Notes: generated from the letters alone by a model not told the origin. Shown: positions 2,250 through 24,000, numbered from the stretch's first letter. The stretch: 24,000 bases of DNA from a bacterium (GCA_043778525.1 JAYWGA010000020.1:7317-31316); one strand, 5' to 3'. A program made the numbers and translations.

Positions 2250-2477
2250 TTATTTGGCAGATTCCAATTCTTTATCAAAAATCAGTAGTAATATTATCCC
2301 TATAAGTATAGAAATTATATTACTGAGGTCTGGATTCATGGGTAGCAGATAATGGTCGAGTAGATTCCACACACCTCGCCAAATGAATATAGCTGAAAAG
2401 ATAATTGTGATATTGCGGAGGAAATAATGATCTCGTATAAAACTCATTCCTTTAAAATGTTTTTTTCTTTTTGCCAT
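2250..2477 (-). CDS. Small hypothetical 2-TM membrane protein
   Basis: 75 aa with a basic N-terminus followed by two hydrophobic segments. It fills the gap between convergent and divergent neighbours. No homology recognised. Confidence 0.4.
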   Translation of the reverse strand: MAKRKKHFKGMSFIRDHYFLRNITIIFSAIFIWRGVWNLLDHYLLPMNPDLSNIISILIGIILLLIFDKELESAK

Positions 2478-2564
2478 GTTTTGCTTTTTTATTTATCTAA
2501 TCTAATTTTATATAAATAGTCTAGCAGATTTTGTTTTGTTGGTAAATACTGTTAGCTTGTTATG

Positions 2565-2573
2565 TGGTATAAT
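2565..2573 (+). promoter_or_regulatory. Extended -10 promoter (TGGTATAAT) for the RhuM/ATPase operon
   Basis: A perfect TGnTATAAT lies downstream of the track's ATG 2562, which argues that ATG 2586 is the real start and the 5' UTR is about 5 nt. Confidence 0.5.
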
Positions 2574-2585
2574 TATATAAAGTAT

Positions 2586-3608
2586 ATGCAATCAAATTCA
2601 GAGATTATAATTTATAATGACAAAAATGGTGATGTAAAACTTGATGTCCGTTTTGATGGCGAGAGTGCATGGCTATCTCAAAAAATGATAGCAGAGCTCT
2701 TTGGGGTTGACGTTCGCACAGTAAGTGAGCATATACAAAATATTTTTGAAACTAAGGAATTACAGGAAATTTCAACTATCCGGAAAATCCGGATAGTTCA
2801 AAATGAGGGTACAAGAGAGGTTTCTCGTGAGGTTTCGTTTTATAATTTAGACGTTATTATTGCTACGGGTTATAGAGTAAATTCTGTTCTAGCCACACAG
2901 TTTCGTATTTGGGCGACCACAAGGCTGAGCGAATACATCAAAAAAGGCTTTACCATGGATGATGATAGATTAAAGGGTATAGGTGGTGGCAATTATTGGA
3001 AAGAGCTTTTAGATCGCATACGCGATATTCGTAGTAGTGAAAAAGTACTTTATCGCCAAGTGCTAGATCTGTATGCGACAAGCATAGACTATGATGCAAA
3101 AAGTGACGAGTCAGTACTTTTTTTTAAAACAGTACAAAATAAATTGCATTATGCTGCAAATAAACATACAGCAGCCGAGACTGTGCACTCTCGAGCTGAT
3201 GCACAAAAAGATTTTATGGGACTCACTACTTTTAAGGGCACACAGCCTGTATTGTCTGAAGTCCGCATAGCTAAAAATTATTTGAATGAAGATGAAATTT
3301 TTATATTAAATAGAATGGTCTCCGCCTTTTTTGACCTCGCCGAAATAAAAGCCAAACAAGAAACGAAAATGCACATGAAAGACTGGGTAGTGGAGCTAGA
3401 TAAATTTGCTGCGAATTATGGTAAGGGGATATTAAAAGACTCTGGAACAGTAAGTCATGAGGAGGCTTTGGTAAAAGCAGAGAGCGAATATAGAAAGTAT
3501 CAAGTAAAAACACTCTCGCCAGTGGAAGAGGCCTATTTAGAAAGTATTAAGAGCATAGAGAGGAAGGTAGAGGTGAAAATTAACAAAGAAAATAAATGTT
3601 ATGATTAA
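2586..3608 (+). CDS. rhuM: RhuM-family protein (virulence protein RhuM family, PF13310-like)
   Basis: The N-terminus matches the characteristic RhuM signature: SEIIIYNDKNGDVKLDVRFDGESAWLSQKMIAELFGVDVRTVSEHIQNIF...YNLDVIIATGYRVNSVLATQFRIWATTRLSEYIKKGFTMDDDRLK. The start was moved from 2562 to 2586 because of promoter position. Confidence 0.85.
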   Translation: MQSNSEIIIYNDKNGDVKLDVRFDGESAWLSQKMIAELFGVDVRTVSEHIQNIFETKELQEISTIRKIRIVQNEGTREVSREVSFYNLDVIIATGYRVNSVLATQFRIWATTRLSEYIKKGFTMDDDRLKGIGGGNYWKELLDRIRDIRSSEKVLYRQVLDLYATSIDYDAKSDESVLFFKTVQNKLHYAANKHTAAETVHSRADAQKDFMGLTTFKGTQPVLSEVRIAKNYLNEDEIFILNRMVSAFFDLAEIKAKQETKMHMKDWVVELDKFAANYGKGILKDSGTVSHEEALVKAESEYRKYQVKTLSPVEEAYLESIKSIERKVEVKINKENKCYD

Positions 3609-5754
3609 AAAGATTATAAAAATTAAAAATATTGGTAAATATGATATACCGTCAGTTAATGAGGAAGACTTTTTTGGTATAAACACTCTAATTTTTGGCG
3701 CTAACAAAATAGGTAAAACTACGCTAGTAGCAATTCTCAGATCCTTAAGAGAAAATGATGTATCTATAGTTTCAAGTAGAAAAACATTTGGAACTTCAGC
3801 AGAGGAAAAGCAAGAATGCGAAATTGTTTGTGATGATGGTACAAGATTCATATATAATTCCTCGTGGTCATATAAAAATATAGAAATTTTTGACAATGAG
3901 TTTATAAATAGAAATATTTTTATTGGAGATAAGATAGAGCAAGGGCATAAAGCCCAGCTGCATAAAATACTGATAGATGAAACAAATTTAGGATTACAGA
4001 AAAATATAAATTTAGAAGAAATTCAATATGCACAATTAATTTTTGATAAAGAGCAAATTAGAAACTCATTGGGAAAAAATTTTAATGAATTTATTAAATT
4101 TAAAGATTCAGATGAGATTTTAGACGTTGATATAAAGATCAAAAACAATCTCAATAAACGTAATCAGTACAATAATCATAAAAAGATTAATCAGCTTAAA
4201 GTTTCGACAAAGCTATCTTTTAATTTTTTAGATTTTGAAATAAAAATTGAAGAAGATATTGACAACAATTTAGAAAAAATAATTAAAAAACATATTGAGA
4301 ATTGCTGGAACATTGAAGATAAAGATTTTAGTTTTCTAGCAATGGGTGTAAATAGAATATCTAATAATAAAAATTTATGTCCTTTTTGTGGCCAGGGGTT
4401 AGAAAATGTTTCTGAATTAATGTCTAATATGAAAATATTTTTTGGTGAAGCTTATAAGATGACACAAATGTCAATTGAATCATCTATAAAATCTTTTAAG
4501 TCGATTGATATAGAGAAAGAGATTGCGCAATTTAAAGCGGAAGGATTGGAATTTTTAAATTTTTCTAATGCAAAGGACTTAGCTGGTTCCTTTGATGTTA
4601 TTATTAAAAAACTTGATCAAAAGCAAAAAGATTTATCCCTTGATATAAAAATTAAAGAAGTGCCTGAGTATAATAACTTTAAGTCAGCAATACAAGCAAT
4701 CTATGTTGAATTAAATTCTCAAAAAATTGAATCTATGGAAATAGGCATATTAGAGAATGAAGAACTTTTACTAAAATTAAACAAAGAACGCTTTACTGTT
4801 GATGTAAATAATAGATTTAGAGAATATGCAAATATTGAAAAAAAATTGCTGATAAAAAAAGTACTCATAGACAAATTAAACGAAGAACTCAAAGTAGGTC
4901 TTAATGGTTTGTTCAAAGACTATTTATACGAGATTAATCTGATACTGAGTAGCTCTTATGCAAATTTTAAACTTACAGAACTTAAGTCTTTGTCAAACAG
5001 GACATTGAAAGAGTCATTTTTTTGCGACTATGCTTTTATTTTTGACGATAGCCACGTCATAAACATCTTAGATGAAGAATGTAAACCTCAGTTTAAAAGT
5101 ACATTAAGTGATTCCGATAAAAGAATCTTTGCTTTTGCTTTTTTTATTGCAAAGCTTAAAAAAGACAATTTATTAACCAGTAGGATAGTCATCTTAGATG
5201 ATCCATTTACAAGCTTAGACGAGGAAAGGAAAGACACTATGATAAATATTTTAAATAAACTAGCTTGTAAACAGTTGATTGTTTTGTCGCACAGTCGCAC
5301 TTTTATTAAGAGGTATCTTTCAATCTTTAAATCGAATGAATCAGACAGCTCGAAAGAAGTAAAGTCTTTAAGACTTATAAACTGCCTTTCAAAAAATAAA
5401 ACAAAAATTACTAATCTGGATATTGAAATAGACAATGATTTTCTTGAAGGTATTGAAAAATATTTAAATACATTAAATAGAGCAAAAATTGAATCTATAG
5501 AATCAGACTATGATAATATAAGAAAAATTATTGAATATATAGTAAAGGCAAAATATGGATCCCTACTGAGTGTTGAAGAGAGGAGAATGCCAATGAGATA
5601 CTTTAATAATCCAAATTGTAAATCTCAAATGAAAGATGAGATAAAAGAAAAGGATTATCAGGAAAATCACCACGACTTAAACAACCAGCCTTCACCAGAA
5701 GAGCTAATCAGTAAAAAAGATTATTTCATAGATAATGTACTGCCATTTATTTGA
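3601..5754 (+). CDS. AAA_13-type ABC/SMC-like ATPase with coiled-coil zinc-hook insertion and PrrC/RloC-like C-terminal domain (candidate anticodon nuclease)
   Basis: Walker A GANKIGKTT (aa 33-41). A long K/E/N-rich predicted coiled coil spans about aa 115-470 and contains CPFCGQ (aa 260-265). ABC signature-like LSDSDKR (aa 502-508), Walker B IVILDDPFTSLD (aa 529-540), H-loop VLSHS (aa 561-565). The C-terminus carries NIRKIIEY (R641-x3-E645) and ENHHD (H690/H691). The start ATG overlaps the rhuM stop (ATGATTAA). Confidence 0.8.
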   Translation: MIKKIIKIKNIGKYDIPSVNEEDFFGINTLIFGANKIGKTTLVAILRSLRENDVSIVSSRKTFGTSAEEKQECEIVCDDGTRFIYNSSWSYKNIEIFDNEFINRNIFIGDKIEQGHKAQLHKILIDETNLGLQKNINLEEIQYAQLIFDKEQIRNSLGKNFNEFIKFKDSDEILDVDIKIKNNLNKRNQYNNHKKINQLKVSTKLSFNFLDFEIKIEEDIDNNLEKIIKKHIENCWNIEDKDFSFLAMGVNRISNNKNLCPFCGQGLENVSELMSNMKIFFGEAYKMTQMSIESSIKSFKSIDIEKEIAQFKAEGLEFLNFSNAKDLAGSFDVIIKKLDQKQKDLSLDIKIKEVPEYNNFKSAIQAIYVELNSQKIESMEIGILENEELLLKLNKERFTVDVNNRFREYANIEKKLLIKKVLIDKLNEELKVGLNGLFKDYLYEINLILSSSYANFKLTELKSLSNRTLKESFFCDYAFIFDDSHVINILDEECKPQFKSTLSDSDKRIFAFAFFIAKLKKDNLLTSRIVILDDPFTSLDEERKDTMINILNKLACKQLIVLSHSRTFIKRYLSIFKSNESDSSKEVKSLRLINCLSKNKTKITNLDIEIDNDFLEGIEKYLNTLNRAKIESIESDYDNIRKIIEYIVKAKYGSLLSVEERRMPMRYFNNPNCKSQMKDEIKEKDYQENHHDLNNQPSPEELISKKDYFIDNVLPFI

Positions 5755-5838
5755 TATTATAAATAGAAATCAGAAGCAGTGTCACGCACTTATCTCAAAG
5801 CGGGAGATCAACAAAACTACTTTAAATTATTTACTTTG

Positions 5839-5920
5839 TGCCCAGGAAAGGACTTGAACCTTCACATCTTGCGATACTAGTTCCTAAGACTAGTGCGTCT
5901 ACCAATTTCGCCACCTGGGC
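5839..5920 (-). tRNA. tRNA-Leu (anticodon UAG), class II with long variable arm
   Basis: The reverse complement reads GCCCAGG-TG-GCG-AAATTGGTAGA-CGC-A-CTAGT-CTTAGGA-ACTAG-TATCGCAAGATGT-GAAGG-TTCAAGT-CCTTT-CCTGGGC-A. This is a perfect cloverleaf with anticodon TAG and no encoded CCA. Confidence 0.9.
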
Positions 5921-5991
5921 AGGTGTTTTGTAATTGTTTAAATTACAAGGACATTATAACACAAAAGTTATTTTTAGGAAAATTTAAAATA

Positions 5992-6000
5992 TGTTATAAT
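5992..6000 (+). promoter_or_regulatory. Extended -10 promoter (TGTTATAAT) upstream of the HAD hydrolase gene
   Basis: A perfect TGnTATAAT sits 14 nt upstream of ATG 6015. Confidence 0.45.
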
Positions 6001-6014
6001 ATGTTTAAATAAAT

Positions 6015-6731
6015 ATGATTAAATTACTTAGCCTAGACCTAGATAAAACAATCACAGAATCAAATTCTTGGGAAATTTTAAATACTCATTTTGGCATAAG
6101 TGAAGAGGACGATAAAAAAATGTATTATGATTTTATGAGTCAAAAGATAAGCTATAAAGAATGGCTGGACAAACTTGCTGACATTTGGAAAGAAAATAAG
6201 GAGCATATAACAAAACAATCTATAATGGATGCCTACAACCCCATATATAAAAAAGATATAATAAATACTATAAAGCAAATACGCCTTGAAAATCCTGGAA
6301 TAATAATAGGTATAACTACTGGTGCACCCAGTGTAGCCGCAGAAAAAAGTATGCATGATCTTAATTTAGATTTCGTTTTTTCTACCAACCATGTAGACTT
6401 TAATGAAAATGCAGAATTTACAGGTTTTATAGATCTAGGTGATGAAACTTTAAGTGGAAAACCAAATTTACTTTCTATTTTTGCAAAAGAAAAAGGAGTA
6501 TTTTTTCATGAGTGTATGCATGTGGGAGATAGTAGAAATGATATACAGCTTTTTAGAAGTACTGGCAATGGTGTTTCTTTCAAATGGTGTAAAGAAGATA
6601 TAAAAAATGAAGCCAAGGTAATAATTGAAGAAATACAGGATTTGCCTGAGGCTATAAAACAAATAAATGAAATTAACTATAAAAATTATCAATTGATTTA
6701 CCCTTATATAAAAACAAATACCAGTATTTAA
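6015..6731 (+). CDS. HAD-superfamily hydrolase (HAD-IB / phosphoserine-phosphatase-like)
   Basis: Motif I LSLDLDKTI (DxD), motif II-like ITTGAP, motif IV GDSRNDIQLF. 238 aa. Confidence 0.8.
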   Translation: MIKLLSLDLDKTITESNSWEILNTHFGISEEDDKKMYYDFMSQKISYKEWLDKLADIWKENKEHITKQSIMDAYNPIYKKDIINTIKQIRLENPGIIIGITTGAPSVAAEKSMHDLNLDFVFSTNHVDFNENAEFTGFIDLGDETLSGKPNLLSIFAKEKGVFFHECMHVGDSRNDIQLFRSTGNGVSFKWCKEDIKNEAKVIIEEIQDLPEAIKQINEINYKNYQLIYPYIKTNTSI

Positions 6732-6738
6732 AACTATC

Positions 6739-7242
6739 TTAAAACTCTACTGCATCACCCACTTTTATATTTAGCTTTTCAGACAGTCCCGCATTTATTT
6801 CTAGTACATATTTTATAGGAGCGGGGGAGAAAAGAGTTTTTGAGAGTTTTGGGTTTATTTCATTGTAGCTATTCTTACTCACATTTCGCTCTATGTCTAT
6901 TATTTTTTTAGAAGCGTCTATCCAAATGATATCTATATCGAAAGCCATGTCCTTCATCCAAAAGCCCTGCGTGGCTGAAGTATCAAAAATAAAAAGCATA
7001 GCGCTATTTGTAGCTAAACTCGCTCTATCACTCAGGCCCTTTTCTCTTTTTTTATCTGTGTCAGCTATTTCTACTTCAAATATATTATTATTTATTTTTA
7101 GTATATTATTTATTTTATTTTCAGCTATGCTATTTTGTACTTTGTCACTTTTGTTAAATGTATTTAATAGAGCAAAAGAAAATAAAGCTAAAATAAAAGC
7201 AAAGAGTATTATTTTTATTTTACTTTTCTTCTTTGTCATCAT
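6739..7242 (-). CDS. DUF192 domain protein with N-terminal membrane anchor
   Basis: The DUF192 pattern is recognisable: EIADTDKKREKGLSDRASLATNSAMLFIF...GFWMKDMAFDIDIIWID...KII. The start overlaps the rbfA 3' end by about 20 nt. Confidence 0.75.
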   Translation of the reverse strand: MMTKKKSKIKIILFAFILALFSFALLNTFNKSDKVQNSIAENKINNILKINNNIFEVEIADTDKKREKGLSDRASLATNSAMLFIFDTSATQGFWMKDMAFDIDIIWIDASKKIIDIERNVSKNSYNEINPKLSKTLFSPAPIKYVLEINAGLSEKLNIKVGDAVEF

Positions 7243-7558
7243 GTATTACCTCATCTATTTTATTGCGTAGCTTTTCACCTTTGTCTATGGCTATATCTAG
7301 GAATGGTAGGCGCCCTGTGCGGATATTTTTGAGGAGATAGTATCTCAGGTCTGCACGCTTGCGTATAGCAAAATGCAGCGCCTCTATCTCGCGAGCCTCT
7401 GGAAATACCGATATGTAGATGGTCGCAGCTTTTTCGTCGGGGGATATTTCTACTCTCGTCACAGTCACCATAGAGGTTAGATTTGACTCCGAAGAGAGAA
7501 ACTTACCACTGAGGTTTTTGATAAGTTCAAATAAATGTTCTTTGCGATATTCTCCCAT
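7220..7558 (-). CDS. rbfA: Ribosome-binding factor A
   Basis: 112 aa, immediately downstream of infB (4-nt gap), which is the classic synteny. The RbfA-like core is VTVTRVEISPDEKAATIYISVFP...LRYYLLKNIRTGRLPFLDIAID. Confidence 0.85.
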   Translation of the reverse strand: MGEYRKEHLFELIKNLSGKFLSSESNLTSMVTVTRVEISPDEKAATIYISVFPEAREIEALHFAIRKRADLRYYLLKNIRTGRLPFLDIAIDKGEKLRNKIDEVIHDDKEEK

Positions 7559-7562
7559 ATAT

Positions 7563-9071
7563 TTATACTATTTTTTTGATTATTAGCTGCAAAGTGTCGC
7601 CCTCGGCTATGTCATACTTTGAGTCGATCATGAGACCGCAGTCATTGCCTTCTTTTACTTCGTCTACTTCTTGTTTGAAAGATTGTAGCTCTATTATTTT
7701 ACCTTTACCTATTATGGTTTCTTTGCGCATAATGCGTATGGTGCCATGATTTTTGAGATATCCTTCAAATACCTTTCCTCCGACTACTTGTGAAGTTTTG
7801 CTTCTATTAAATACGCGTATGATCTTCAAAGATCCAGCCACTTCTTCTATCTCGGTCTTTGGACGGGCAGCTTCTGCGTAGACACTCAGCCATTCGCTCA
7901 TTTTGTAAATGATGTCAAAGCTATTTATTTTTACTTTTAGTCTGTCAGCAGTCTCGATAGCCTTTTTATCTATACCAGTATGAAAAGATATGAGGGCGCA
8001 AGTCTTGTCTATGCTCGCCATACTCACATCCTTTTCCATCACTAGGCCTACATCTTTTTGTATTATTTTAAATCGCACTCCATCTATTTTGATAGCCAGT
8101 ATTTCTTTTTCTATAGCCTCGAGACTACCGTAGGTGTCAGCTTTTATTATTATAGGCAGAGCAAAGTCCTCAGTAAAATTAAAATCGTCAGAAAAAATAT
8201 TTCCATTTTTGATAGCTTGCGCAAAAATACTTGCAGCATCTTCGGCATCTCGTTTTTTGTCATGTGCAGTGAAGGTCTTTCCTGTTTCTGGGACTTTATT
8301 AAAGCCAGTTATTTTTATAGGCTCCCCAGCACTTGCCTCTTTTATAGTTTTGCCTAAAAAGTTTTCCATTATACGTGTAGGCGAGGTCGCGTCTTCTACT
8401 TGTATGGTAGAGCCCGCGTGCACCTTTCCTTTTTTTACTATCAAGGTCGCCGAGATACCTCTTTTGCTATCTACAAATGACTCTAAGATGACACCTGAGC
8501 CTTCTTCATTTGCATCAAATGACAGATCTATTATTTCACTTTGTATCACTATGAGGTCTAGCAGCTCGTCTATATTTGTGCCCATCTTTGCTGAGATACC
8601 GACAAAAGGCACTGTTCCTCCCCAGCCCTCGACAAATATACCAATATCAGATAGAGAGTTTTTTACCATGTCTAGATTTGCACTCGGCTTGTCTATTTTA
8701 TTTATGGCTACTATACAAGGTAGTCCTGATTTTTCTATAGCTTTCCAGCTTTCTTTTGTTTGTGGCTTGGCGCCGTCTTCGGCTGAGACTACTAAGATAG
8801 CGATATCGGCAATATCTACTCCACGCTCGCGCATAGATGAAAAAGCGGCGTGGCCAGGCGTATCTAAAAAGGTGATAGGAGACTCTTTGCCGTCACTCGT
8901 TTTCCAGTTTACCTCGTACGCCGAAATATGCTGAGTGATACCACCAGCCTCGCCGTCTACTACATTACTTTTGCGTATATAGTCCAAAAGACTAGACTTG
9001 CCATGGTCTACATGGCCAACTATAGCTACTATAGGAGCTCTTTTGCTCACATTTTTTACAGGATTTGACAT
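7563..9071 (-). CDS. infB: Translation initiation factor IF-2 (short form, lacks the long N-terminal region)
   Basis: G-domain motifs VAIVGHVDHGKSSLLD (G1), GITQHI, DTPGH (G3), NKID (G4), followed by typical IF-2 domains II-IV. Only 502 aa. Confidence 0.95.
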   Translation of the reverse strand: MSNPVKNVSKRAPIVAIVGHVDHGKSSLLDYIRKSNVVDGEAGGITQHISAYEVNWKTSDGKESPITFLDTPGHAAFSSMRERGVDIADIAILVVSAEDGAKPQTKESWKAIEKSGLPCIVAINKIDKPSANLDMVKNSLSDIGIFVEGWGGTVPFVGISAKMGTNIDELLDLIVIQSEIIDLSFDANEEGSGVILESFVDSKRGISATLIVKKGKVHAGSTIQVEDATSPTRIMENFLGKTIKEASAGEPIKITGFNKVPETGKTFTAHDKKRDAEDAASIFAQAIKNGNIFSDDFNFTEDFALPIIIKADTYGSLEAIEKEILAIKIDGVRFKIIQKDVGLVMEKDVSMASIDKTCALISFHTGIDKKAIETADRLKVKINSFDIIYKMSEWLSVYAEAARPKTEIEEVAGSLKIIRVFNRSKTSQVVGGKVFEGYLKNHGTIRIMRKETIIGKGKIIELQSFKQEVDEVKEGNDCGLMIDSKYDIAEGDTLQLIIKKIV

Positions 9072-14156: not shown

Positions 14157-14570
14157 ATGCTAAAGTTTTATTTTAAAGTGCGCAAAAGGGTGACTAGTGT
14201 TAGGAAGCGGACACGAAAGAAAAATAGTATAAAAAGCCAAAAAGACTATATAGAGCATAAGGAAATGGCGAGAGTGCTAGTCCTGGAGAGGCTAGAGTAT
14301 TTTAATCAATTTTACAATTTAAAATGGGGCAGGGTATCTATTAAAAATGTAAAGACGCGCTGGGGCAGCTGCTCTTCTAAAGGCAATCTCAACTTTAGCT
14401 ACAAAATAATAAAGCTAGCGCCGCATCTAGCTGACTATATTATAGTGCATGAGCTATGCCATCTGAAGGAGATGAATCACGCGCAAGCTTTTTGGGACTT
14501 GGTAGCACAGCAAATGCCAGAGTACAAGGCATTAAAAAATGAGCTGGCTAAAATTAAACTATATAACTAA
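14157..14570 (+). CDS. YgjP-like (DUF45 / M48-SprT-like) zinc metallopeptidase, short form
   Basis: Matches the DUF45 signature ending in the HExxH metal site: RWGSCSSKGNLNFSYKIIKLAPHLADYIIVHELCHLKEMNHAQAFWDLV. 137 aa. Confidence 0.8.
   Translation: MLKFYFKVRKRVTSVRKRTRKKNSIKSQKDYIEHKEMARVLVLERLEYFNQFYNLKWGRVSIKNVKTRWGSCSSKGNLNFSYKIIKLAPHLADYIIVHELCHLKEMNHAQAFWDLVAQQMPEYKALKNELAKIKLYN
14529..14556 (+). repeat. Left copy of a perfect 28-bp direct repeat (gcattaaaaaatgagctggctaaaatta), inside the 3' end of the ygjP-like gene
   Basis: Identical letter-for-letter to 15072-15099. It encodes ALKNELAKI in the ygjP-like reading frame. Confidence 0.95.
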
Positions 14571-14579
14571 GCCACAATA

Positions 14580-14588
14580 TGATAAAAT
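14580..14588 (+). promoter_or_regulatory. Extended -10 promoter (TGATAAAAT) for the MazF-like gene, leaderless-type spacing
   Basis: It ends 6 nt before ATG 14595 and lies inside the repeat-bounded insertion. Confidence 0.4.
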
Positions 14589-14594
14589 GTAGAT

Positions 14595-14978
14595 ATGAAA
14601 GATTTTAATGCATGGAGCGAGGTCAAAAAATCACAAGACGATAAAATTAGAAATGTATTTTGCAAAGAGCGTGATATTTGGTGGTCTACACTTGGACTAA
14701 ATATTGGCGATGAGGAAGATGGTAAGGGTGAGTTATTTGAAAGACCGATCATTGTAATTAAAAAATTTAATAATAATATATTTTGGGGATGTGCTTTGTC
14801 TACTAAAATAAAAGATAATAATAAGTATTATGTAAAAGTTAAAACTAAAGAAGGTGTGCAGTCTGTGATAATTTCTCAGCTGCGCTTATACGATACAAAA
14901 AGACTTGGAGAAAAAATAGATGTAGCAAGTAAAGAAGATTTTGAAAAAATAAAAACAGCAATTAAAAATTTGCTGTAA
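14595..14978 (+). CDS. PemK/MazF-family toxin-like protein (orphan; no adjacent antitoxin ORF seen)
   Basis: RDIWWSTLGLNIGDEEDGKGELFERPIIVIKKF matches the MazF/PemK core 'GeIwwv.lG.n.G.Eq.G..RPvlVi'. Later SQLRLYDTKRLGEKI matches 'sQirtid..Rl..kiG'. 127 aa. Confidence 0.7.
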   Translation: MKDFNAWSEVKKSQDDKIRNVFCKERDIWWSTLGLNIGDEEDGKGELFERPIIVIKKFNNNIFWGCALSTKIKDNNKYYVKVKTKEGVQSVIISQLRLYDTKRLGEKIDVASKEDFEKIKTAIKNLL

Positions 14979-14992
14979 TTATTGTTATTACC

Positions 14993-15010
14993 CGAGAGAT
15001 TTCTCTCTCG
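14993..15010. other. Perfect 7-bp stem / 4-nt loop hairpin (CGAGAGA-TTTC-TCTCTCG) downstream of the MazF-like gene
   Basis: Seen directly in the sequence. There is no U-tract on either strand, so a role as an intrinsic terminator is uncertain. Confidence 0.3.
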
Positions 15011-15071
15011 AAAGCCCGGAGGCATTTGTATCTATAATATTATACGAAAACAATAAATAAGTCAAGGTAAT

Positions 15072-15099
15072 GCATTAAAAAATGAGCTGGCTAAAATTA
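15072..15099 (+). repeat. Right copy of the 28-bp direct repeat; overlaps the stop codon of the minus-strand deacetylase gene
   Basis: Identical to 14529-14556. Read in the + frame it continues as ALKNELAKIILK-stop (TAG at 15108-15110), which looks like the ancestral 3' end of the ygjP-like gene. Confidence 0.95.
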
Positions 15100-15933
15100 T
15101 TTTAAAGTAGATTTTTTAGCTGGAAAAAGCTCGTAAAATAATCCCATATTACTATTTATGTTGTACCTATTTAATTTAAAGATATCTTTTTGCGTATGAT
15201 AGTTACCATAGCTATCCGACACTGCCGCTATGTAGCCAGCCTCTTCTACTATTTTCGTGACGGTAGCATTTGTGAGGCCATAAGGGTATGAAAAAATATT
15301 TACAGGCTTGCCTATTTTGTCTTCTAGTATTTTTTTACTTCCAGCTATTTCTCTTTCTAGTATTTTTGTGTCTGTTATTTTATTTAGTTTTGGATGAGAG
15401 ACGGTATGCGCTCCTATGGTCATATTATTTTTATCCATATCTATTATATCTTTCCAGCTCATGGCTATGGGGTAGTTTTTATTTATGGCTTTAGTATAAA
15501 TAAAAAAGTTTGCTCGCAAATTATATTTTTTAAGTATAGGGTAGGCATTTGTGTACTGATTTCTATAGCCATCATCAAAAGTGATAATGACTGGATTTTC
15601 GGGAAGTGGCGTATTTTTATTTAAATTATTTACTAGATCATCAAAACTTATAATACTATAATCATTTTCTTTTAGATACTTCATCTGGGTTTCAAAAATA
15701 TTTATAGGCGTGATAAATTCTTTTGCAAAAATATTATCTTTTTTATTAAAATCTCGCACTTGATGATAGGTGAGTATCACCACTTTTGTACTAGTACTTT
15801 TTGTAAAGTTTTGCTCAAGAGTTTCTAGCTTTACCTCAGATATTTCAAAAGGTGTCTCACCAGGGTAGGCAAAGGTGGCTTGTGATAAACAGATAACAAT
15901 AAAAAACGAAATTACTTTAATAATTTTTTTCAT
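15097..15933 (-). CDS. Polysaccharide deacetylase family protein (NodB/PgdA-like), secreted
   Basis: Signal peptide, then NodB motifs ITFDDGYRNQYTNAYPILKKYNLRANFFI and IGAHTVSHPKL. Confidence 0.9.
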   Translation of the reverse strand: MKKIIKVISFFIVICLSQATFAYPGETPFEISEVKLETLEQNFTKSTSTKVVILTYHQVRDFNKKDNIFAKEFITPINIFETQMKYLKENDYSIISFDDLVNNLNKNTPLPENPVIITFDDGYRNQYTNAYPILKKYNLRANFFIYTKAINKNYPIAMSWKDIIDMDKNNMTIGAHTVSHPKLNKITDTKILEREIAGSKKILEDKIGKPVNIFSYPYGLTNATVTKIVEEAGYIAAVSDSYGNYHTQKDIFKLNRYNINSNMGLFYELFPAKKSTLK

Positions 15934-15939
15934 TGTTTA

Positions 15940-15948
15940 ATTATATCA
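15940..15948 (-). promoter_or_regulatory. Extended -10 promoter (TGATATAAT on minus strand) for the deacetylase gene, leaderless-type spacing
   Basis: The minus strand reads TGATATAAT-TAAACA-ATG. Confidence 0.45.
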
Positions 15949-15994
15949 CGCAAACGTAGGCCTTTCCATTTCAAATTGCGTTTTCTGCTCCATA

Positions 15995-16753
15995 TTATAA
16001 TTTTTTATATTTACCATTTCCTAAAAATTCTATATAATTTTTATCTCTCAGTAATTGTAATTGCTGCCTAAGTTTATCCTTTATGTGTTTGTTTTTAGTA
16101 AATATTTCCTCAAGTCTTGCTTTGTGCTTGTAAATATCTTGAAGTGTAAAATAGTTTTTACACTTGTCTACGATTTTTAAAACTTCAAAAGCCCATCCAC
16201 GTTTTTCTAAATTATCTATTTTAAAATTTTTAGTCTTATTCCAGTTTTCTTTTATAATCTTTTTATCTACGATTTCTCCATTTTTAATTAAAAAGATTTT
16301 TCCAATATCAGGTATTTCAGAATAAAGTATATTGCAACCAATCCAACCAGCCCTTTTAGCCGTATTTGAAAGTGGTTTTCTTTTTTCTATAATATTTTCA
16401 GTAAAAAAGTATTTGGGTATTGCTATCACATCTCTTACTATAAAATTTGCATTATAATTTAGAAAAATGAGATTGGGGTTATTGTTAGAATTAACTCTAT
16501 TTATCATTGTACTGTATGCACCGTCCACAATTTTTTTTGATACCATTCCTTTCTTTGATTTGAGTTCAAATTCTTCTTTACAATTTGAACAGTAAAAATC
16601 TGCGACAGGTGAATTGTTTTCAAATTGAGTTAAATTATTTAGACAGCTAACACAGTATCCGTTTTCTAGATACCAAGGCTCAGTCATCACTCTAGCTTTT
16701 TGTGAAGAGCTTTTGTAATCTGTACTTGTATATTTTTCTAAAGATAATGTCAT
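15995..16753 (-). CDS. dpnC: DpnI-type methylation-dependent type IIM restriction endonuclease (G-m6A-TC specific family)
   Basis: Collinear similarity to my recollection of S. pneumoniae DpnI over the whole length. Shared segments: YKSSSQKARVMTE, YC.SC.N.L..FENN.PVADFYC..C.EEFELKSKKG, DGAY.TM..RV...NNPN, RKPL..TA.RAGWIGCNI, and the C-terminal wHTH end NKHIKDKLRQQLQLLRDKNYIEFLGNGKYKKL. Confidence 0.9.
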   Translation of the reverse strand: MTLSLEKYTSTDYKSSSQKARVMTEPWYLENGYCVSCLNNLTQFENNSPVADFYCSNCKEEFELKSKKGMVSKKIVDGAYSTMINRVNSNNNPNLIFLNYNANFIVRDVIAIPKYFFTENIIEKRKPLSNTAKRAGWIGCNILYSEIPDIGKIFLIKNGEIVDKKIIKENWNKTKNFKIDNLEKRGWAFEVLKIVDKCKNYFTLQDIYKHKARLEEIFTKNKHIKDKLRQQLQLLRDKNYIEFLGNGKYKKL

Positions 16754-16794
16754 TTAAAATTTGTTAGCTTATATTTTTCTCCTATAAATAAATT

Positions 16795-17628
16795 TTATTC
16801 ATAGTCATTGATATTAATTGTATTTAGTTTTTGAAGGCCATATACAGGATCTTCTAAAAATTTTTTGATAAAATACTTACCTTTATTCGTCACTGATATT
16901 TTGTCTTCTTTTTGATCTATTTCTATAATCCCATTACTATGGCAATAGGCTAATATGTCTTTTGGAATTTCGAATTGTACTTCGCCACTAAAATTATTTT
17001 TTTCTTTTACTTTAGCATTTTTTTCATAGTAGGATTCTATAATTTTATCAAACTTATATGAAAAATTAAGCACTTTAAACTTTTGATAATCACGTATCCA
17101 TTGTATCGTGGGATCTGTTTCTTTTATAATCTTCTCTAATTGAGACCTATTTATTTCTGCTGTTTTTTTCTTAACCTCTTCACTTAAGATGGCGTTTTCA
17201 GATTTTATAACCTCAACCTCTTTTTTATTCCGTGCTATCTCAGCGTCTTTATGTTTCGCATATAAAAAATCGTATAAAGATTTTTCATCGAAGCTATTAA
17301 ATTTCTTAAATACTATTGAATAGATGATAGCGCTTATAAAAACTGGAATTAAATATATTGATACATAAATATTTATTTTTTCTAAAAAAAGATAAGTATT
17401 ATTTTTTATAAAATCTGGAAGAGCTGTATACTTACTCCAATTAGAATAAACTAGCTTGTCTGCTATGTCTGCTCTTCCAAAAAATATGTATAGAATAATA
17501 CCTTTATTCCAGAGTATAAAAGATAAAATATAAACTCTAAAAACAGAAGACGTAGGAGGGCTATTTAAAAAATCATACATTAAATCTGCCCAGCTTTTAT
17601 TCTTATCCACAATTTGAGATTCACTCAT
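16795..17628 (-). CDS. Hypothetical membrane protein: 2 predicted TM helices + coiled coil + C-terminal winged-helix-like domain
   Basis: 277 aa. Hydrophobic segments VFRVYILSFILWNKGIILYIFF and IYVSIYLIPVFISAIIYSIVF, then a charged heptad-like stretch (KDAEIARNKKEVEVIKSENAILSEEVKKKTAEINRSQLEKIIKE). The C-terminus ILAYCHSNGIIEIDQKEDKISVTNKGKYFIKKFL resembles a wHTH. It lies 41 nt upstream of dpnC on the same strand. No family recognised. Confidence 0.6.
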   Translation of the reverse strand: MSESQIVDKNKSWADLMYDFLNSPPTSSVFRVYILSFILWNKGIILYIFFGRADIADKLVYSNWSKYTALPDFIKNNTYLFLEKINIYVSIYLIPVFISAIIYSIVFKKFNSFDEKSLYDFLYAKHKDAEIARNKKEVEVIKSENAILSEEVKKKTAEINRSQLEKIIKETDPTIQWIRDYQKFKVLNFSYKFDKIIESYYEKNAKVKEKNNFSGEVQFEIPKDILAYCHSNGIIEIDQKEDKISVTNKGKYFIKKFLEDPVYGLQKLNTININDYE

Positions 17629-18882: not shown

Positions 18883-21800
18883 CTAATCACTTAAGAAGTG
18901 GCATAATTGAAGATATCTTTGAAAAAGTTTTTTACACATATCTTTATCATTTATAAGCTCATATGCTTTCATCATATTCACAAAACCTCCGTGTCCAGTA
19001 TTTTTATATAGATGTAGTTCCATCTCTTTTTTCATCCTAAGATCACCTAGAGCAACCGAAACTCCTAAGTAAAAATATGGCGAATTAGAAGTAAACCAAT
19101 CAGTGTGTGGAAAGGTATATCGAGTCAGAGTTTCTGTAAATGGCGCAATATTACCAAGGTACTTAAAGGTTCTGTTCAGGAGTAGCTCCCAAGAATCTCT
19201 ATTTGAAATCACAATTCCATTTTTATAATCTTCTAATTTTTTATAAAATCTTTTGATTTTTGCCTTGTTGGTCAATCCAATCAAAATCTTATGTAAATCT
19301 TTGTTAGATATTTTATTTGTATCATCACTATTATTTTTCTCATCAAACTCAACATTCACTGTTTTATTATATTTATTACAAAGCTCAATGTAAGAAACTT
19401 TTAAATCCTTATAGTCTATATCTCTAAGGAAATAGGTTATGCCTTCTGTTTTCATCTCTTCAACTAAGTTGTAGGCAATTTCAAATGCAGCCTTCTTGTC
19501 CTCTTCGGAATATATTGGTGATTTTGACACCTCTACATAAACTTTAATCTTATGCTCATAACTGTCAGAGTTTGGTTTGTTATCGTGATTATAATCTTGC
19601 CTGTACTCGAGAATACCCTCTTTAATCTCATCAAGATCAGTACCGATTCTCACCTTGCCCAATAAGATGTATGTATTAGCCTGATTGTTATAATTTCTGT
19701 AACCCTTATCCTTGATTAAAGTCTTTCTTAATTCATTTGCAAATGAAATATCAAATTTTGAGGCTAACTCAATAACATTGTAAGGTCCTTTCCATGTCAC
19801 AGCCCCATCTGTAAAACTTGAAACATGGAGAGTGAGTTCAAAAATTTCAGATAAGTACTTCTTTATATTTTCAGTAGTCTCACAGTTATTTCTTATGAGA
19901 ATTTCTAAGGAGTCCACTAGCTGATGACTGACCAAGGAATCTTTTCTCCATCCATGCCTTAGAACACTTTCTTTTAAACCTTTTACAAAGTATTCTCTGG
20001 CTTTTTGTTGGTCAATTTTTGAATAAAATAATGATAGAGAAAAACAATCATTAACTAAGGATTGATAATCATCAAATTTTTTGAGCTGGACTTCAATTTT
20101 ATTTAAATCAGTCTGATTAATTAACTTATCAAACAGTTCTTTGTTTATAGATACTAATTTGTAGTAAAAACTCCAAGGAATTATGCCTGATTCTGGTCCT
20201 AGTAACTTTTCCTTTAGAATAAATAGGTCTTCAACCTTTATAGTGGTTACAAGCGACTTACTAAAGATCTGCGCCCAAAGGAAAGAGATATCTGTTTTTA
20301 GATAGCGATCAAGTCTGTCATCTCTCTCTTTTATATAAGAAAAATAATTTCTTAACACGAGCCCAATTGTAGATTTAGTTTTAATAATATTTATATATGA
20401 GTCAAAAAGTGCTGAGTATAGTTCAAGCTCATCTAAGTATTTAAAATTATCATTCGGGTCATTATTTATTTGGCTAAATTTATTTTCATTTAAAGCATAT
20501 GAAATTATTGAAAACTTATGTGGAATGTTATACATATGCCAATCCACCTTCCTTTCGTTTCTCGTTTTTACCAAAAGTTGTTTTAGTAAAGTAGTCTCTT
20601 CATCATTAAGACTCAATCCAAAGTATGTCTTGTAAAATGAGATGTGGTAGTTTTCTTCCCCGAAGGTTACGTTTTCTAGAATTAAACGTTTCTTGATCAA
20701 ATTTTGTATCTTTCTATTTACTAAAAGTGTATTAATTCCATCGAATGACAAGAGCACTCCTAGTAAGGCGTTAAACTCAAAAGTGTCTAACTTGTTTAAG
20801 TTACTAATTAAAAACTTATCATCAACTGATAAAATTGCATAATAAAAAGAGTTTATTAATTTCTCCTTATTGTTTTCTCTTGAAAAACTTTTATCATTCT
20901 CATTCTCGTAAAATTTATAATTTACGCGAATTTGATCTTCCAAAACCTTTGAGGCACTACGTTTTTTTATAACAATCAATATATAAATAAAGTCTGACCA
21001 ATGTTGCCAAAACGGATCTGTAACATGGGTATTTTCACTTTTGTTTTTGAAAAAATCCTTCTCGTGGAATATATCTTGAATTTTAGATATGTGAGTAATT
21101 ATTTTCTGCGAAAACTCTTTTTTACCGCTCTTCCAAAAAATAACAGCATTCTCTATCATTGGTCCGATAGAGCTCCAAGCTCCAGATAACTTGTCATTTA
21201 TTTTATAGTCATTTTTATCCTTATCCCATGCATCAAAAGTTTTATTTAAATAGTCTAAATCCAAAAAAAACATCTTTTTCATTTTAAAACTATCACTTTC
21301 CAACAATTCTTCCATCACCCCAGGCTCTTGATTTGCAAGTGCGGGAATAAATTCTGAAGAATTATGATAATAAGCATCATCAACTCCGTATCCAGTATGA
21401 TTGCCAAGATATACATCGAGTAAATTTATATCAAGTAATCCCACAATATCATTATTTTTTTCATAACATTTTCTTAAATACTTTAAGAAGTATTGTTCGA
21501 AAAAGTCACGATTAGAGAGAACATCTGTACGACGTAGTATAAATGGATCTTTTTCATATTCTAATTTTAATCTCTGTATAAAGAAAAACTCTTGATACCT
21601 TCTGTGTCGATAGATATAGTCGAGTCTCGTTTCATTATCTAAATAACTATTTTCAAAAAATAGATCAGTGAGATAGTTTAATATCTCATTTGTCGAGTTG
21701 TAATCCGCCCTAGGAAAGATGCTAGCAATAATGTCTTGAAGTTCTGATTTCGGTAATCTAAACTGAAATTTCTGATAGGAGCGAAAGGATATCTCTTGAT

Positions 21801-23148
21801 TCAGAGTAAGTATTTTTTCTGGTTTCTCATCCAAAATATTTAAAGTCTCAATATTTTTCTTATGATCAGGGGAATACAGAAGAATCTGCACATTCTCTTC
21901 AATTAAATCAGCAACTGTACTTTTCTCATTTAGTTCTTCTATGGTATCCCACAGTAATTTTATAAATAAAATATCCACTATCTCAGAGATTAGTAATTTA
22001 TTATTTTTCTTAAGTTTGCTTAGGTATTTATCTTTTATCTTGTTGTTTTTACTCTTAAAGTAAAGATCGATATAAGTATTATCTAAGCTTGAAAAGCAAA
22101 AATGCTCAGCCTTAGGTAAGTAAACTGCAGCTCTTGTTTTATTAGAATTACCAGATCGACAAGATATAATAATTTTTTTGGTTGTACTTAATTGTTCTAG
22201 GTTTCTTATGTAAAAAAGTGTCTGATCTGCCTTTTCTGGACTCAACTCGTCGAGACCATCAAATATATAAATGAAATCAAGTTTCTTGTTTCTAACCGAG
22301 AAATCATTTTGCCTATCCCTTATAAGACCCTCCAGATTTTCATTCACGCAATCTTTAAGATTAATAATCATGGGGATTGCTTTGTTCTGTGCCCACACTG
22401 CCAACATCTCTTTTTTGTTTTTCTTATTTAATCCTGAAAAATCTCTAAAAAGAGCGTGTGAAAAAATACTCTTACCAGAACCTGGATGTCCTAGCAGTAA
22501 AAATACCTTTTGTTTTCTTGAAAGAATGCTTTTAACTGGATCCACCATTATTTTGTTGTTACTAGACAGTGGTAACTTAAGATATCCTTCTGACTGAATA
22601 AATGTTTGTATGCTTAAATTAGAGTCATTTTTAATAAAAGAGTAATTATCAGCTTCTCCAAAGTAGATCTGTCCCAAGTCCAAATTACCTGGTTGATTTA
22701 ATGAAATTGAGAAATTTCCAGGATCAAACCAAGATATTTCAATCTTTAATTCTTTAGCAGAGTCAATTAATACCTGCTCTTCAGATGAAACTGTAGTACT
22801 TTTTTTACTACTTTCACTTCGTAATTTATTCACATAAAAAATTACATTATTAAGTTTTGGGTGCTTAGCCTTAGCTTTTCTTAAACCATCCTCCAAGCTT
22901 TTATAATTAATATTTGATTCAAAAAATTTTGACTGAAAACCGATAACTCTTTTACCAACAGAAACTGGAGGCTTCTCTATACCTGTTTGATTTCGATAAC
23001 CAGAAATTCCATCTGATATTTTATAAGTTCTACAAAACAGAAAATAACAAAGTTGCTCAAAAGAACCCTCTGGGTCGCCATTTTCTAACCTAAACTTGTC
23101 GAAGTTAACATTTACTATATTTTCAGTCTGTTTTTTAGTTGTAGACAT
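18883..23148 (-). CDS. STAND/NACHT-type NTPase (NLR-like/Avs-like) with N-terminal Mrr-like PD-(D/E)xK nuclease module and ~1000-aa helical C-terminal region
   Basis: N-terminus: FEQLCYFLFCRTY...QTGIEKPPVSVGKRVIGFQSKFF resembles Mrr_cat 'FE.l...ll...G...D.GID.....vQcKr'. Walker A LLLGHPGSGKS (aa 217-227; nt 22468-22491 for GHPGSGKS). NACHT-style Walker B IYIFDGLDEL (aa 293-302). Then IIISCRSG, followed by about 1000 aa of largely helical-looking sequence with no motif recognised. The start codon lies 3 nt after the hsdS stop. Confidence 0.85.
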   Translation of the reverse strand: MSTTKKQTENIVNVNFDKFRLENGDPEGSFEQLCYFLFCRTYKISDGISGYRNQTGIEKPPVSVGKRVIGFQSKFFESNINYKSLEDGLRKAKAKHPKLNNVIFYVNKLRSESSKKSTTVSSEEQVLIDSAKELKIEISWFDPGNFSISLNQPGNLDLGQIYFGEADNYSFIKNDSNLSIQTFIQSEGYLKLPLSSNNKIMVDPVKSILSRKQKVFLLLGHPGSGKSIFSHALFRDFSGLNKKNKKEMLAVWAQNKAIPMIINLKDCVNENLEGLIRDRQNDFSVRNKKLDFIYIFDGLDELSPEKADQTLFYIRNLEQLSTTKKIIISCRSGNSNKTRAAVYLPKAEHFCFSSLDNTYIDLYFKSKNNKIKDKYLSKLKKNNKLLISEIVDILFIKLLWDTIEELNEKSTVADLIEENVQILLYSPDHKKNIETLNILDEKPEKILTLNQEISFRSYQKFQFRLPKSELQDIIASIFPRADYNSTNEILNYLTDLFFENSYLDNETRLDYIYRHRRYQEFFFIQRLKLEYEKDPFILRRTDVLSNRDFFEQYFLKYLRKCYEKNNDIVGLLDINLLDVYLGNHTGYGVDDAYYHNSSEFIPALANQEPGVMEELLESDSFKMKKMFFLDLDYLNKTFDAWDKDKNDYKINDKLSGAWSSIGPMIENAVIFWKSGKKEFSQKIITHISKIQDIFHEKDFFKNKSENTHVTDPFWQHWSDFIYILIVIKKRSASKVLEDQIRVNYKFYENENDKSFSRENNKEKLINSFYYAILSVDDKFLISNLNKLDTFEFNALLGVLLSFDGINTLLVNRKIQNLIKKRLILENVTFGEENYHISFYKTYFGLSLNDEETTLLKQLLVKTRNERKVDWHMYNIPHKFSIISYALNENKFSQINNDPNDNFKYLDELELYSALFDSYINIIKTKSTIGLVLRNYFSYIKERDDRLDRYLKTDISFLWAQIFSKSLVTTIKVEDLFILKEKLLGPESGIIPWSFYYKLVSINKELFDKLINQTDLNKIEVQLKKFDDYQSLVNDCFSLSLFYSKIDQQKAREYFVKGLKESVLRHGWRKDSLVSHQLVDSLEILIRNNCETTENIKKYLSEIFELTLHVSSFTDGAVTWKGPYNVIELASKFDISFANELRKTLIKDKGYRNYNNQANTYILLGKVRIGTDLDEIKEGILEYRQDYNHDNKPNSDSYEHKIKVYVEVSKSPIYSEEDKKAAFEIAYNLVEEMKTEGITYFLRDIDYKDLKVSYIELCNKYNKTVNVEFDEKNNSDDTNKISNKDLHKILIGLTNKAKIKRFYKKLEDYKNGIVISNRDSWELLLNRTFKYLGNIAPFTETLTRYTFPHTDWFTSNSPYFYLGVSVALGDLRMKKEMELHLYKNTGHGGFVNMMKAYELINDKDMCKKLFQRYLQLCHFLSD

Positions 23149-23151
23149 AAA

Positions 23152-24000
23152 TTATGCAAAAGATTTTGCCATTACAGCATTAAATAACTCATCGACCATT
23201 TGAGTTGATTGAAGCTGCTTCTCTTTTTGAACTTCAATCCCCTTAACTAATTCCGCAAATTTATTTTGTAATTCAATTGGAGACAAAGAGATAATAAGAT
23301 TTTTTATAATAGTCGAATTCCATCCTTCCATGATTGCACCCTTAGAAACATTTCGAGTCTGTTTTCTAACCTCATTGTCAAAAAGTAACGATGCCCACAA
23401 ATAAACAGGGTTCAATCTTGTCTTGTTTGTGGTAATTACGCACAAGTGCTTAGTACTCATGCATTTTGGTAAATCATCTGGAGCAACCACAACTCTACCA
23501 ACAGTTCCCATTATCGTTACCAGTACATCACTAGGGTGAACTTGAAATTTTATAAATTTCTTGAATTTTTCTTCTGGGAGACATCTTTTATATGTCCATC
23601 TAAATTTATTCTTTACTACATTATCTATACCTAAAACAGGGACACCAACCTCTGTAAATTCATGGTGATGCAACTGGCTACCGAAAGGGCCTGTTCTTAT
23701 TGAGCTTTTATCAATGACTAAATTAACAATCTTATCTTTAGGATATGCTTCTTTGCTAAAAAAGTTTTCAAATAAATCAGTTACAAGATCTTCCATTTTC
23801 TTATTTGCCTCAGCTCTCTTATTTTTCAAATCCTCAGCTTCTTTAATAAGAGAAACGATTCGTTTCTGCTCATTCAGATCTGGATTACCTTTTGTATCTG
23901 TTGGAATAGGTACAGTGATTTTTTGTACATACACTTTTGAAATATGTTTAAGTCCTGCACCTTTAAATCCTGTATCTAATATGTGCTTGTTACTTAGTAA
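23152..24000 (-). CDS. hsdS: Type I restriction-modification specificity subunit HsdS, C-terminal part (5' end beyond the window)
   Basis: Central conserved region I.VPIP...EQKRIVSLIKEAEDLKNKR followed by a target-recognition domain (GPFGS...VPVLGIDNV...) and a C-terminal conserved helix (PIELQNKFAELVKGIEVQKEKQ). The frame stays open upstream of the track's GTG through position 24000 (LLSNKHILDTGFKGAGLKHISK...). Confidence 0.9.
   Translation of the reverse strand, partial: LLSNKHILDTGFKGAGLKHISKVYVQKITVPIPTDTKGNPDLNEQKRIVSLIKEAEDLKNKRAEANKKMEDLVTDLFENFFSKEAYPKDKIVNLVIDKSSIRTGPFGSQLHHHEFTEVGVPVLGIDNVVKNKFRWTYKRCLPEEKFKKFIKFQVHPSDVLVTIMGTVGRVVVAPDDLPKCMSTKHLCVITTNKTRLNPVYLWASLLFDNEVRKQTRNVSKGAIMEGWNSTIIKNLIISLSPIELQNKFAELVKGIEVQKEKQLQSTQMVDELFNAVMAKSFA

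Follow-up and report, generated by a model that had tools for sequence, protein, structure and literature searches.

RloC, a family of anticodon nucleases (ACNases), is defined by four features: a length of 658–897 amino acids (aa), PrrC-like ATP-binding cassette (ABC) motifs, a Rad50-like coiled-coil insert with a CX2C zinc hook and a C-terminal Arg-X3-Glu-X36-52-His triad (Davidov & Kaufmann 2008, PMC2610378). The same study puts the length of RloC at about twice that of PrrC and identifies R692, E696 and H737 as essential in the protein of Geobacillus kaustophilus (GkaRloC), where mutation of the triad abolishes both nuclease activity and toxicity. The zinc hook and the DNA-dependent ATPase of RloC were later argued to form an internal switch that lets rloC move without a linked silencer (Klaiman et al. 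2012, PMC3458546). The association of PrrC/RloC genes with RhuM and restriction-modification (R-M) genes was reported by Anantharaman et al. (2013, PMC3710099), along with the idea of multilevel defence, a proposal that RhuM is a toxin and the assignment of PrrC and RloC to HEPN domains. Type I R-M operons in which a RhuM gene sits among the core genes have been noted as well (PMC9881135). Here we analyse a pair of overlapping genes, one of the RhuM family and one encoding an RloC-like ATPase, located at 2565–5754 in a 24 000-nucleotide (nt) stretch of bacterial DNA (GCA_043778525.1, JAYWGA010000020.1:7317-31316), the whole of which is referred to below as the window.

We consider it reasonably probable that the pair is an accessory cassette orphaned from a type I R-M operon: an RloC-family ACNase with its own switch and a RhuM defence protein, co-transcribed and translationally coupled, with products acting separately. 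This reading is carried by the gene identities, the motifs, the neighbourhood statistics and the detachment of the pair from R-M genes; if it is right, the ATPase would be a nuclease with its own trigger, the two proteins would work independently and the coupling would have a role in expression. The association of RhuM, RloC and R-M genes has been known since 2013 (PMC3710099); the pair is an ordinary further example of it and not a dedicated two-protein system. Its detachment from the R-M chassis is the sole unusual feature of the cassette.

The downstream gene (3601–5754, plus strand) encodes a 717-aa RloC-like protein: a coiled-coil insert divides its Rad50/SMC-like ABC ATPase head, and the C-terminal domain that follows is predicted to be an ACNase of the HEPN type. 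The Pfam family AAA_13 (PF13166) was matched at 61 bits against a cut-off of 36. The PADLOC model PDC-S06 was matched with E = 3e-36 over the N-terminal 310 residues only. A profile search of the PDB also matched Rad50, and in searches of NCBIfam there were only sub-threshold ABC/RecF matches, while PHROGs was uninformative. The start codon is secure because the N-terminus MIKKI(L/I)KIKNIG is conserved in close relatives.

Motif conservation was evaluated in alignments of 22 relatives (profile A1) and then of 150 relatives; the counts given here refer to the larger set. In the Walker A motif (P-loop), GANKIGKTT (residues 32–41; 3694–3723), G38, K39 and T41 are invariant. The zinc-hook-type CX2C motif, CPFC (C260-x-x-C263; 4378–4389), retains both cysteines in 150/150 relatives and is placed by the AlphaFold2 (AF2) model in a loop between the long helices of the insert. 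The ABC signature LSDSD (502–506), the Walker B/D-loop ILDDPFTSLD (531–540) and the switch histidine H564 are encoded at 5104–5292; S503, D533, D534 and H564 are invariant, and so are D506 and D540. The predicted ACNase catalytic triad, R641-X3-E645-X45-H691 (5521–5673), is conserved with R in 147/150, E in 148/150 and H in 115/118 aligned sequences. All these motifs are on the plus strand. The size, the ABC motifs, the CX2C insert and the triad, that is, all four sequence features that define RloC, are thus present in the window ATPase.

The AF2 model of the ATPase (predicted local distance difference test, pLDDT, 82) shows an ABC head split by ∼460 mostly helical residues between Walker A and the signature, and Foldseek aligned it with SMC, cohesin and Rad50 heads carrying coiled coils. 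The C-terminal domain is helical in the model and bears the conserved R641, E645 and H691; the canonical HEPN spacing Rx4-6H was not seen in the alignment. The relatives (n = 149) are 683–865 aa long, and one homologue with 58% identity is labelled ‘wobble nucleotide-excising tRNase’ by JGI.

With RloC (G. kaustophilus RloC; Campylobacter rloC/E/G) the window ATPase shares its size class (717 aa, within 658–897), the Rad50-like ABC ATPase interrupted by a coiled coil that bears a CX2C zinc hook, the Arg-X3-Glu-X36-52-His triad, a low-GC and poorly expressed gene and an occurrence with or without linked type I R-M. The similarity is distant, with GkaRloC compared through motif criteria rather than by direct alignment, and the clade of the window ATPase is embedded in R-M operons far more often than the 8/73 reported for RloC. 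The GC content of the RloC-like gene is 10–15 points below that of its neighbours in all loci examined, namely the window (0.271 at 3601–5754 versus 0.368) and the related loci L172 (0.37 at 5154–7307 versus 0.46–0.50) and L174 (0.245 at 6001–8151 versus 0.38–0.42), in keeping with the rare codons and low expression noted for rloC genes.

PrrC, the tRNA-Lys ACNase embedded in the type IC R-M system EcoprrI, likewise combines an ABC-ATPase with an ACNase, and the catalytic triad is the same. Like prrC, the relatives of the window gene are embedded in EcoR124-type (type IC-like) hsd operons. In the prr locus prrC occupies the slot between hsdS and hsdR, whereas the slot of these relatives is situated between hsdM and hsdS. 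Moreover, prrC is always linked to R-M genes, while the window gene adjoins none. PrrC proteins are also compact (341–416 aa) and devoid of the coiled-coil/zinc-hook insert, unlike the 717-aa window protein with its CxxC insert, and a PrrC identity was rejected for this reason.

The upstream gene (2586–3608, plus strand) encodes a 340-aa RhuM-family protein, matching Pfam Virulence_RhuM (PF13310) with E = 4e-104 (348 bits against a cut-off of 33.7; profile positions 1–248 of 252) and PADLOC model PDC-S05 with E = 5e-143. The enclosing open reading frame (ORF) covers 2562–3608, and an alternative upstream ATG at 2562 would yield 348 aa; the ATG at 2586 is the likely start because the N-terminus from this position matches homologues and one gene call on an identical contig gives 340 aa. 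The initial annotation had thus named both families correctly, and the restriction-linked, defence-island character it ascribed to them was confirmed as well. A PADLOC search, suggested there as a check on a two-gene system, did recover both proteins, PDC-S06 as the partial match described above, but each is catalogued as a single-gene candidate and PADLOC has no two-gene listing.

RhuM consists of an N-terminus resembling a helix-turn-helix (HTH) or winged helix (approximately residues 5–115) and a highly conserved, largely helical RhuM domain. The AF2 model is poor (pLDDT 57): only the N-terminal part (approximately residues 20–115) is confident, with strands and an HTH-like helix pair to which Pfam HTH_36 matches weakly, while the conserved helical domain is poorly modelled. 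For this low-confidence model (m60b0a58fda7b) the best Foldseek match in the PDB was DdrC (8u0g; E = 9e-4, TM 0.28–0.40, a weak match), a DNA-damage-response DNA-binding protein of Deinococcus. The match is a weak lead, on which RhuM may bind damaged or foreign DNA. A sequence search of the PDB with RhuM gave no match, nor did NCBIfam, and PHROGs was uninformative. Some RhuM relatives carry a Fic annotation; Pfam found no Fic domain in RhuM, and homology was undetectable when the RhuM profile was compared with a Fic protein by hhalign (probability 0.05).

The RhuM family is very large, with >8000 homologues at E < 1e-20, many of them 65–71% identical. About 100 positions are invariant among 38 sequences, and conservation this high suggests an enzyme or a tightly constrained binder and would be unusual for a fast-evolving toxin. 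Our literature search found no paper establishing RhuM biochemistry. According to passages of a preprint, one PDC-S05 (RhuM-domain) gene alone in E. coli B lowered the efficiency of plating of T7 and T5 ∼1000-fold and that of T4 ∼10-fold (bioRxiv 10.1101/2024.09.26.614923).

The two genes overlap by 8 nt (ATGATTAA; 3601–3608, plus strand), with the end of RhuM (Y-D-stop) placed over the start of the ATPase (M-I-K), exactly as first annotated. An extended −10 promoter-like motif, TGGTATAAT, is located at 2565–2573 (plus strand), 13 nt ahead of the RhuM ATG; if it acts as a promoter, the leader should be very short or absent. The motif type TGNTATAAT occurs in nine copies in the window versus 3.1 expected, a number reached in 0/100 shuffles, and most copies are just upstream of gene starts; this enrichment and placement make it a credible promoter type for the genome. 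Because no further copy of TGNTATAAT was found within the pair on the plus strand (2574–5754), transcription of both genes from a single promoter is plausible. Of the earlier claim that the genes share an extended −10 promoter, the motif itself therefore stands, as a member of an enriched type, and the use of one promoter by both genes is plausible rather than demonstrated. A search for a terminator at the pair found none. A Shine-Dalgarno sequence is absent ahead of the window ATPase start, in contrast to AAGGAGG in L172.

A probable origin of the pair is suggested by the neighbourhoods of the ATPase relatives. Eight distinct ATPase proteins make up the close clade (46–100% identity to the window protein), all of them with a readable upstream context. 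All seven other members (46–62% identity) reside inside one conserved type IC-like hsdM-slot-hsdS-hsdR operon. Five of them show the order hsdM-ATPase-hsdS-hsdR with no RhuM (P0002, the closest with 62% identity, P0007, P0016, P0018 and P0021; loci L171, L010, L173, L006–L009 and L240), and two the order hsdM-RhuM-ATPase-hsdS-hsdR (P0004 and P0013; L172 and L174). Only the window protein (window and L001–L005) is found as RhuM-ATPase with no R-M genes beside it. Hence, directly upstream of the ATPase there is a RhuM gene in 3/8 members and hsdM in 5/8.

The host operons themselves are strongly conserved. Their HsdM proteins are 82–88% identical (five operons: L006, L010, L172, L173 and L174) and their HsdR proteins 78–85% identical (four operons: L006, L172, L173 and L174); the EcoR124_C domain carried by HsdR makes them type IC-like. 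The embedded ATPases are 46–62%, and the two embedded RhuMs 54–56%, identical to the window proteins. Judged from these sequences, the host operons (L006, L010, L171–L174 and L240) share one conserved R-M chassis, and what varies is the slot between hsdM and hsdS, filled either by an RloC-like gene alone or by RhuM and an RloC-like gene. The exact combination described in the neighbourhoods of Anantharaman et al. is present in L172 and L174, and the window pair corresponds to its inner part, differing in that the R-M genes are missing. Genes flanking the chassis include Fic, AbiE and KilA-N.

A set of 160 more distant relatives, with 22–38% identity plus two partial loci at 51–55%, was collected from genomes and metagenomes. 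The census covered the 150 loci whose ATPase ORF reaches 1500 nt or more. Upstream sequence was sufficient in 137 of them, and in 101 of the 137 a co-directional ORF lies immediately upstream. R-M genes are the usual neighbour: the immediate upstream ORF matched N6_Mtase in 25 cases, Methylase_S in 23, Eco57I in 16 and ResIII in 6 (Pfam), and hsd genes are present in the flanks of about one-third of the distant relatives. RhuM was directly upstream in 1/137 (L113). In three further loci (L025, L077 and L162) RhuM was detected elsewhere within 8 kb; in L025 and L162 it is downstream, on the other side of the ATPase, at a distance of 2–5 kb.

The tight junction with RhuM has parallels in operons without RhuM. 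The start of the ATPase gene overlaps the upstream hsdM by 14 nt in L006 and follows it after gaps of 1–5 nt in L240, L010 and L173; downstream of RhuM, L172 has an identical junction, TATGATTAA, and L174 and L113 have short gaps. Because the ATPase gene overlaps or abuts whatever precedes it, tight coupling is a trait of this gene in any operon and no evidence for a partnership with RhuM.

The RhuM relatives give the same picture. The two nearest homologues of the window RhuM (70–71% identity) both lack the ATPase. The closest one (71%) is located in a mini-island of Fic, an EcoRI-type methylase, RhuM and a GmrSD type IV restriction enzyme (L175, 4192–8188), so that RhuM evidently associates with several kinds of restriction systems; the RhuM homologue in L177 stands alone, flanked by recJ and an RNase H gene. 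An Aliarcobacter plasmid has the order hsdM-RhuM-hsdS-NTPases-hsdR. In a collection of viral contigs, a scan with the single RhuM sequence gave no match and a scan with the RhuM profile gave 60 loci; in these and L175–L177, an ATPase matching profile A1 was found in 0/63 loci. The window RhuM is closer to unpaired RhuMs (70–71%) than to those paired with related ATPases (54–56%), which implies that pairs were assembled more than once or reshuffled and not inherited as a unit; the identity comparison gave no congruent co-inheritance of RhuM and ATPase.

These counts bear on the proposal of the initial annotation that RhuM and the ACNase-like ATPase form a fixed, dedicated two-component system, with RhuM as the sensor or regulator, in the role that the R-M complex plays for PrrC, or as an immunity partner. 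RhuM as sensor, silencer or immunity partner would also be what permits the cassette a life free of R-M. The 8-nt overlap and single promoter motif are what such a system would show, as are the same order and tight junction in L172 (identical TATGATTAA), L174 and L113. In addition, the sole member of the close clade without R-M genes retains RhuM, whose HTH-type N-terminus and weak structural match to a DNA-break binder would suit a sensor of DNA state. On the other hand, 5/8 close ATPases have hsdM and no RhuM upstream, RhuM directly precedes the ATPase in one of the 137 distant relatives, and the ATPase is absent from all 63 other RhuM loci. The window RhuM does not group in one clade with the RhuMs that are paired with related ATPases, the ATPase is as tightly coupled to hsdM as to RhuM, and in L025 and L162 RhuM sits at a distance on the other side. 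Furthermore, RloC has a switch of its own (PMC3458546) and passages of the preprint cited above report RhuM alone as protective. Adjacency was to be assessed by neighbourhood analysis: it does recur, in L172, L174 and L113, yet it is not conserved, which in substance answers the proposal in the negative. We therefore regard a dedicated system as distinctly unlikely. A reading of the pair as toxin-antitoxin, with RhuM as the antitoxin, was rejected because most ATPase relatives are without RhuM.

A specific form of this proposal would have RhuM stand in for the R-M complex, its HTH end binding DNA, sensing phage DNA or DNA damage and directly gating the RloC-like nuclease. We find this quite improbable. 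Were it true, RhuM and RloC would make a self-sufficient, portable two-protein abortive-infection system able to leave the type I R-M operon, and a first molecular role for RhuM would be established.

The DNA similarity to relatives ends at the gene borders of the pair, no remnant of the chassis hsdM, hsdS or hsdR could be detected, either next to the pair or in the rest of the window, and the ATPase has no hsd gene closer than 13 kb, as opposed to the seven relatives embedded in the type IC hsd locus. The initial statement that no R-M genes are next to the pair is true of immediate adjacency; farther away it does not hold, as hsdS begins at 23152 in the window and a complete hsdR-hsdM-hsdS operon is present on the same contig 13–17 kb from the pair. 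The window contains the distal part of this resident type I R-M operon (18883–24000, minus strand): a 1421-aa P-loop-like ORF (18883–23148) and hsdS, running off the window end. The operon continues on L178/L179 (1–10000) and encodes HsdR (769 aa), HsdM (492 aa) and HsdS (376 aa), followed by the co-directional 1421-aa ORF, which has only a faint P-loop (NPHP3_N) match and an ‘rlo’-like position downstream of hsdS. A 441-aa large serine recombinase adjoins the operon.

With such an operon nearby, PrrC-like regulation in trans has to be considered: the resident type I R-M complex would keep the nuclease latent, phage anti-restriction would release it and RhuM would be a bystander. An interaction in trans of RloC with type I R-M was proposed by Davidov and Kaufmann (PMC2610378), the operon on this contig is complete and relatives of the ATPase are overwhelmingly embedded in R-M loci. 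The resident system, a possible in-trans partner by analogy, is nevertheless of another family than the chassis of the relatives: its HsdM and HsdR are ∼25% identical to those of the chassis and its HsdR has no EcoR124_C domain, and cognate contact is doubtful on both grounds. In sum, we judge silencing by the resident operon to be unlikely.

Another explanation takes the pair for what is left of a degraded type I R-M locus, a non-functional relic that persists by chance and has no current role. The missing R-M chassis, the absence of a Shine-Dalgarno sequence ahead of the ATPase start (unlike L172) and the lack of a detected terminator would agree with decay. But neither ORF is truncated, every catalytic residue and motif is intact, and the pair is preceded by a good promoter motif, of the type enriched in this genome. 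The identical ATPase protein was also found on 11 contigs. Nine of them are represented by L001–L005, which carry the pair and come from five samples. An intact ACNase gene suggests control and use, as an uncontrolled ACNase would be quickly counter-selected. We consider a relic highly improbable.

We prefer to see the pair as the ‘restriction-linked ORFs’ that accompany a type I R-M operon as accessories, present here without the operon itself. In the proposed mechanism, the Rad50-like ABC head, the coiled coil and the CxxC zinc hook would keep the C-terminal RNase, with its Arg-Glu-His triad, inactive. Release would come from a DNA-break or anti-restriction signal, and the freed RNase would cut tRNA anticodon loops and shut down translation in the infected cell, a defence of the abortive-infection type. 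As RloC carries its own switch, it could exist without an adjacent R-M silencer. RhuM would contribute an N-terminal HTH-type DNA-binding module and a conserved helical domain; RhuM genes often occupy the same slot of type I R-M operons. The overlap would most likely serve to limit translation of the toxic, low-GC nuclease gene and to couple it to that of the gene upstream, and would be no mark of a specific partnership.

Several points weigh against this interpretation. The sole clade member without R-M genes keeps RhuM, which would fit a replacement of R-M by RhuM, although it is a single case. The order of RhuM then ATPase with tight spacing recurs in four loci and may reflect a functional link. 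At E up to 10, the ATPase matched no PADLOC model named PrrC or RloC; PDC-S06, mad3 and, marginally, mad8 were the only models matched. Nuclease activity, substrate, trigger and zinc response of the window ATPase would have to be extrapolated from the distant homologues GkaRloC and PrrC. For RhuM, the defence result quoted from the preprint (10.1101/2024.09.26.614923) concerns another homologue, and with the poor model (pLDDT 57) any mechanism would be conjectural.

The surroundings of the pair are housekeeping genes: ispA-like, def, HAD, DUF192, rbfA and infB. As described in the initial annotation, the pair is positioned between them against the 3′ end of tRNA-Leu(UAG) (5838–5920, minus strand; ARAGORN), a neighbour that is convergent with the ATPase gene and ends 83 nt from its stop codon. 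The accompanying suggestion of an island inserted at the tRNA was rejected: there is no integrase or recombinase between 2250 and 5920, and a search for att-like direct repeats of the tRNA 3′ end around the pair was negative. Directly upstream, a 75-aa ORF (2250–2477, minus strand) has a Pfam match to the C-terminal end of ‘Fuseless’ (PF15993, E = 1e-9) and is probably a small membrane protein. Extended −10 sites of the TGNTATAAT type are located in the window at 1670, 2565, 5953, 5992, 10240, 12429, 15940 and 18817, most of them 1–15 nt upstream of start codons or tRNA, a placement that suggests widespread leaderless or near-leaderless transcripts in this genome. Another defence-like cluster is situated between housekeeping genes at 14157–17628 and includes a YgjP-like metallopeptidase (14157–14567), a MazF/PemK toxin (14595–14975) and, on the minus strand, a DpnI-family methyl-directed restriction enzyme (15998–16753) and its 277-aa neighbour (16798–17628). 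The host is probably a member of Patescibacteria or a similar lineage of the candidate phyla radiation, as indicated by 33% GC and by relatives in Saccharibacteria and Parcubacteria metagenome-assembled genomes.

The pair adds no new kind of system; its interest is more specific. It is a clean natural case of the contents of a type I R-M slot, RhuM and an RloC-like tRNase, surviving alone in a small, low-GC genome. The type IC-like chassis of its relatives, with the variable position between hsdM and hsdS, is a convenient site for mining accessory defence genes. The pair also offers a compact construct for asking whether RhuM and RloC act independently or jointly and what RhuM does. As a cassette free of R-M genes, it lends support to the published idea of a built-in switch in RloC-type nucleases.

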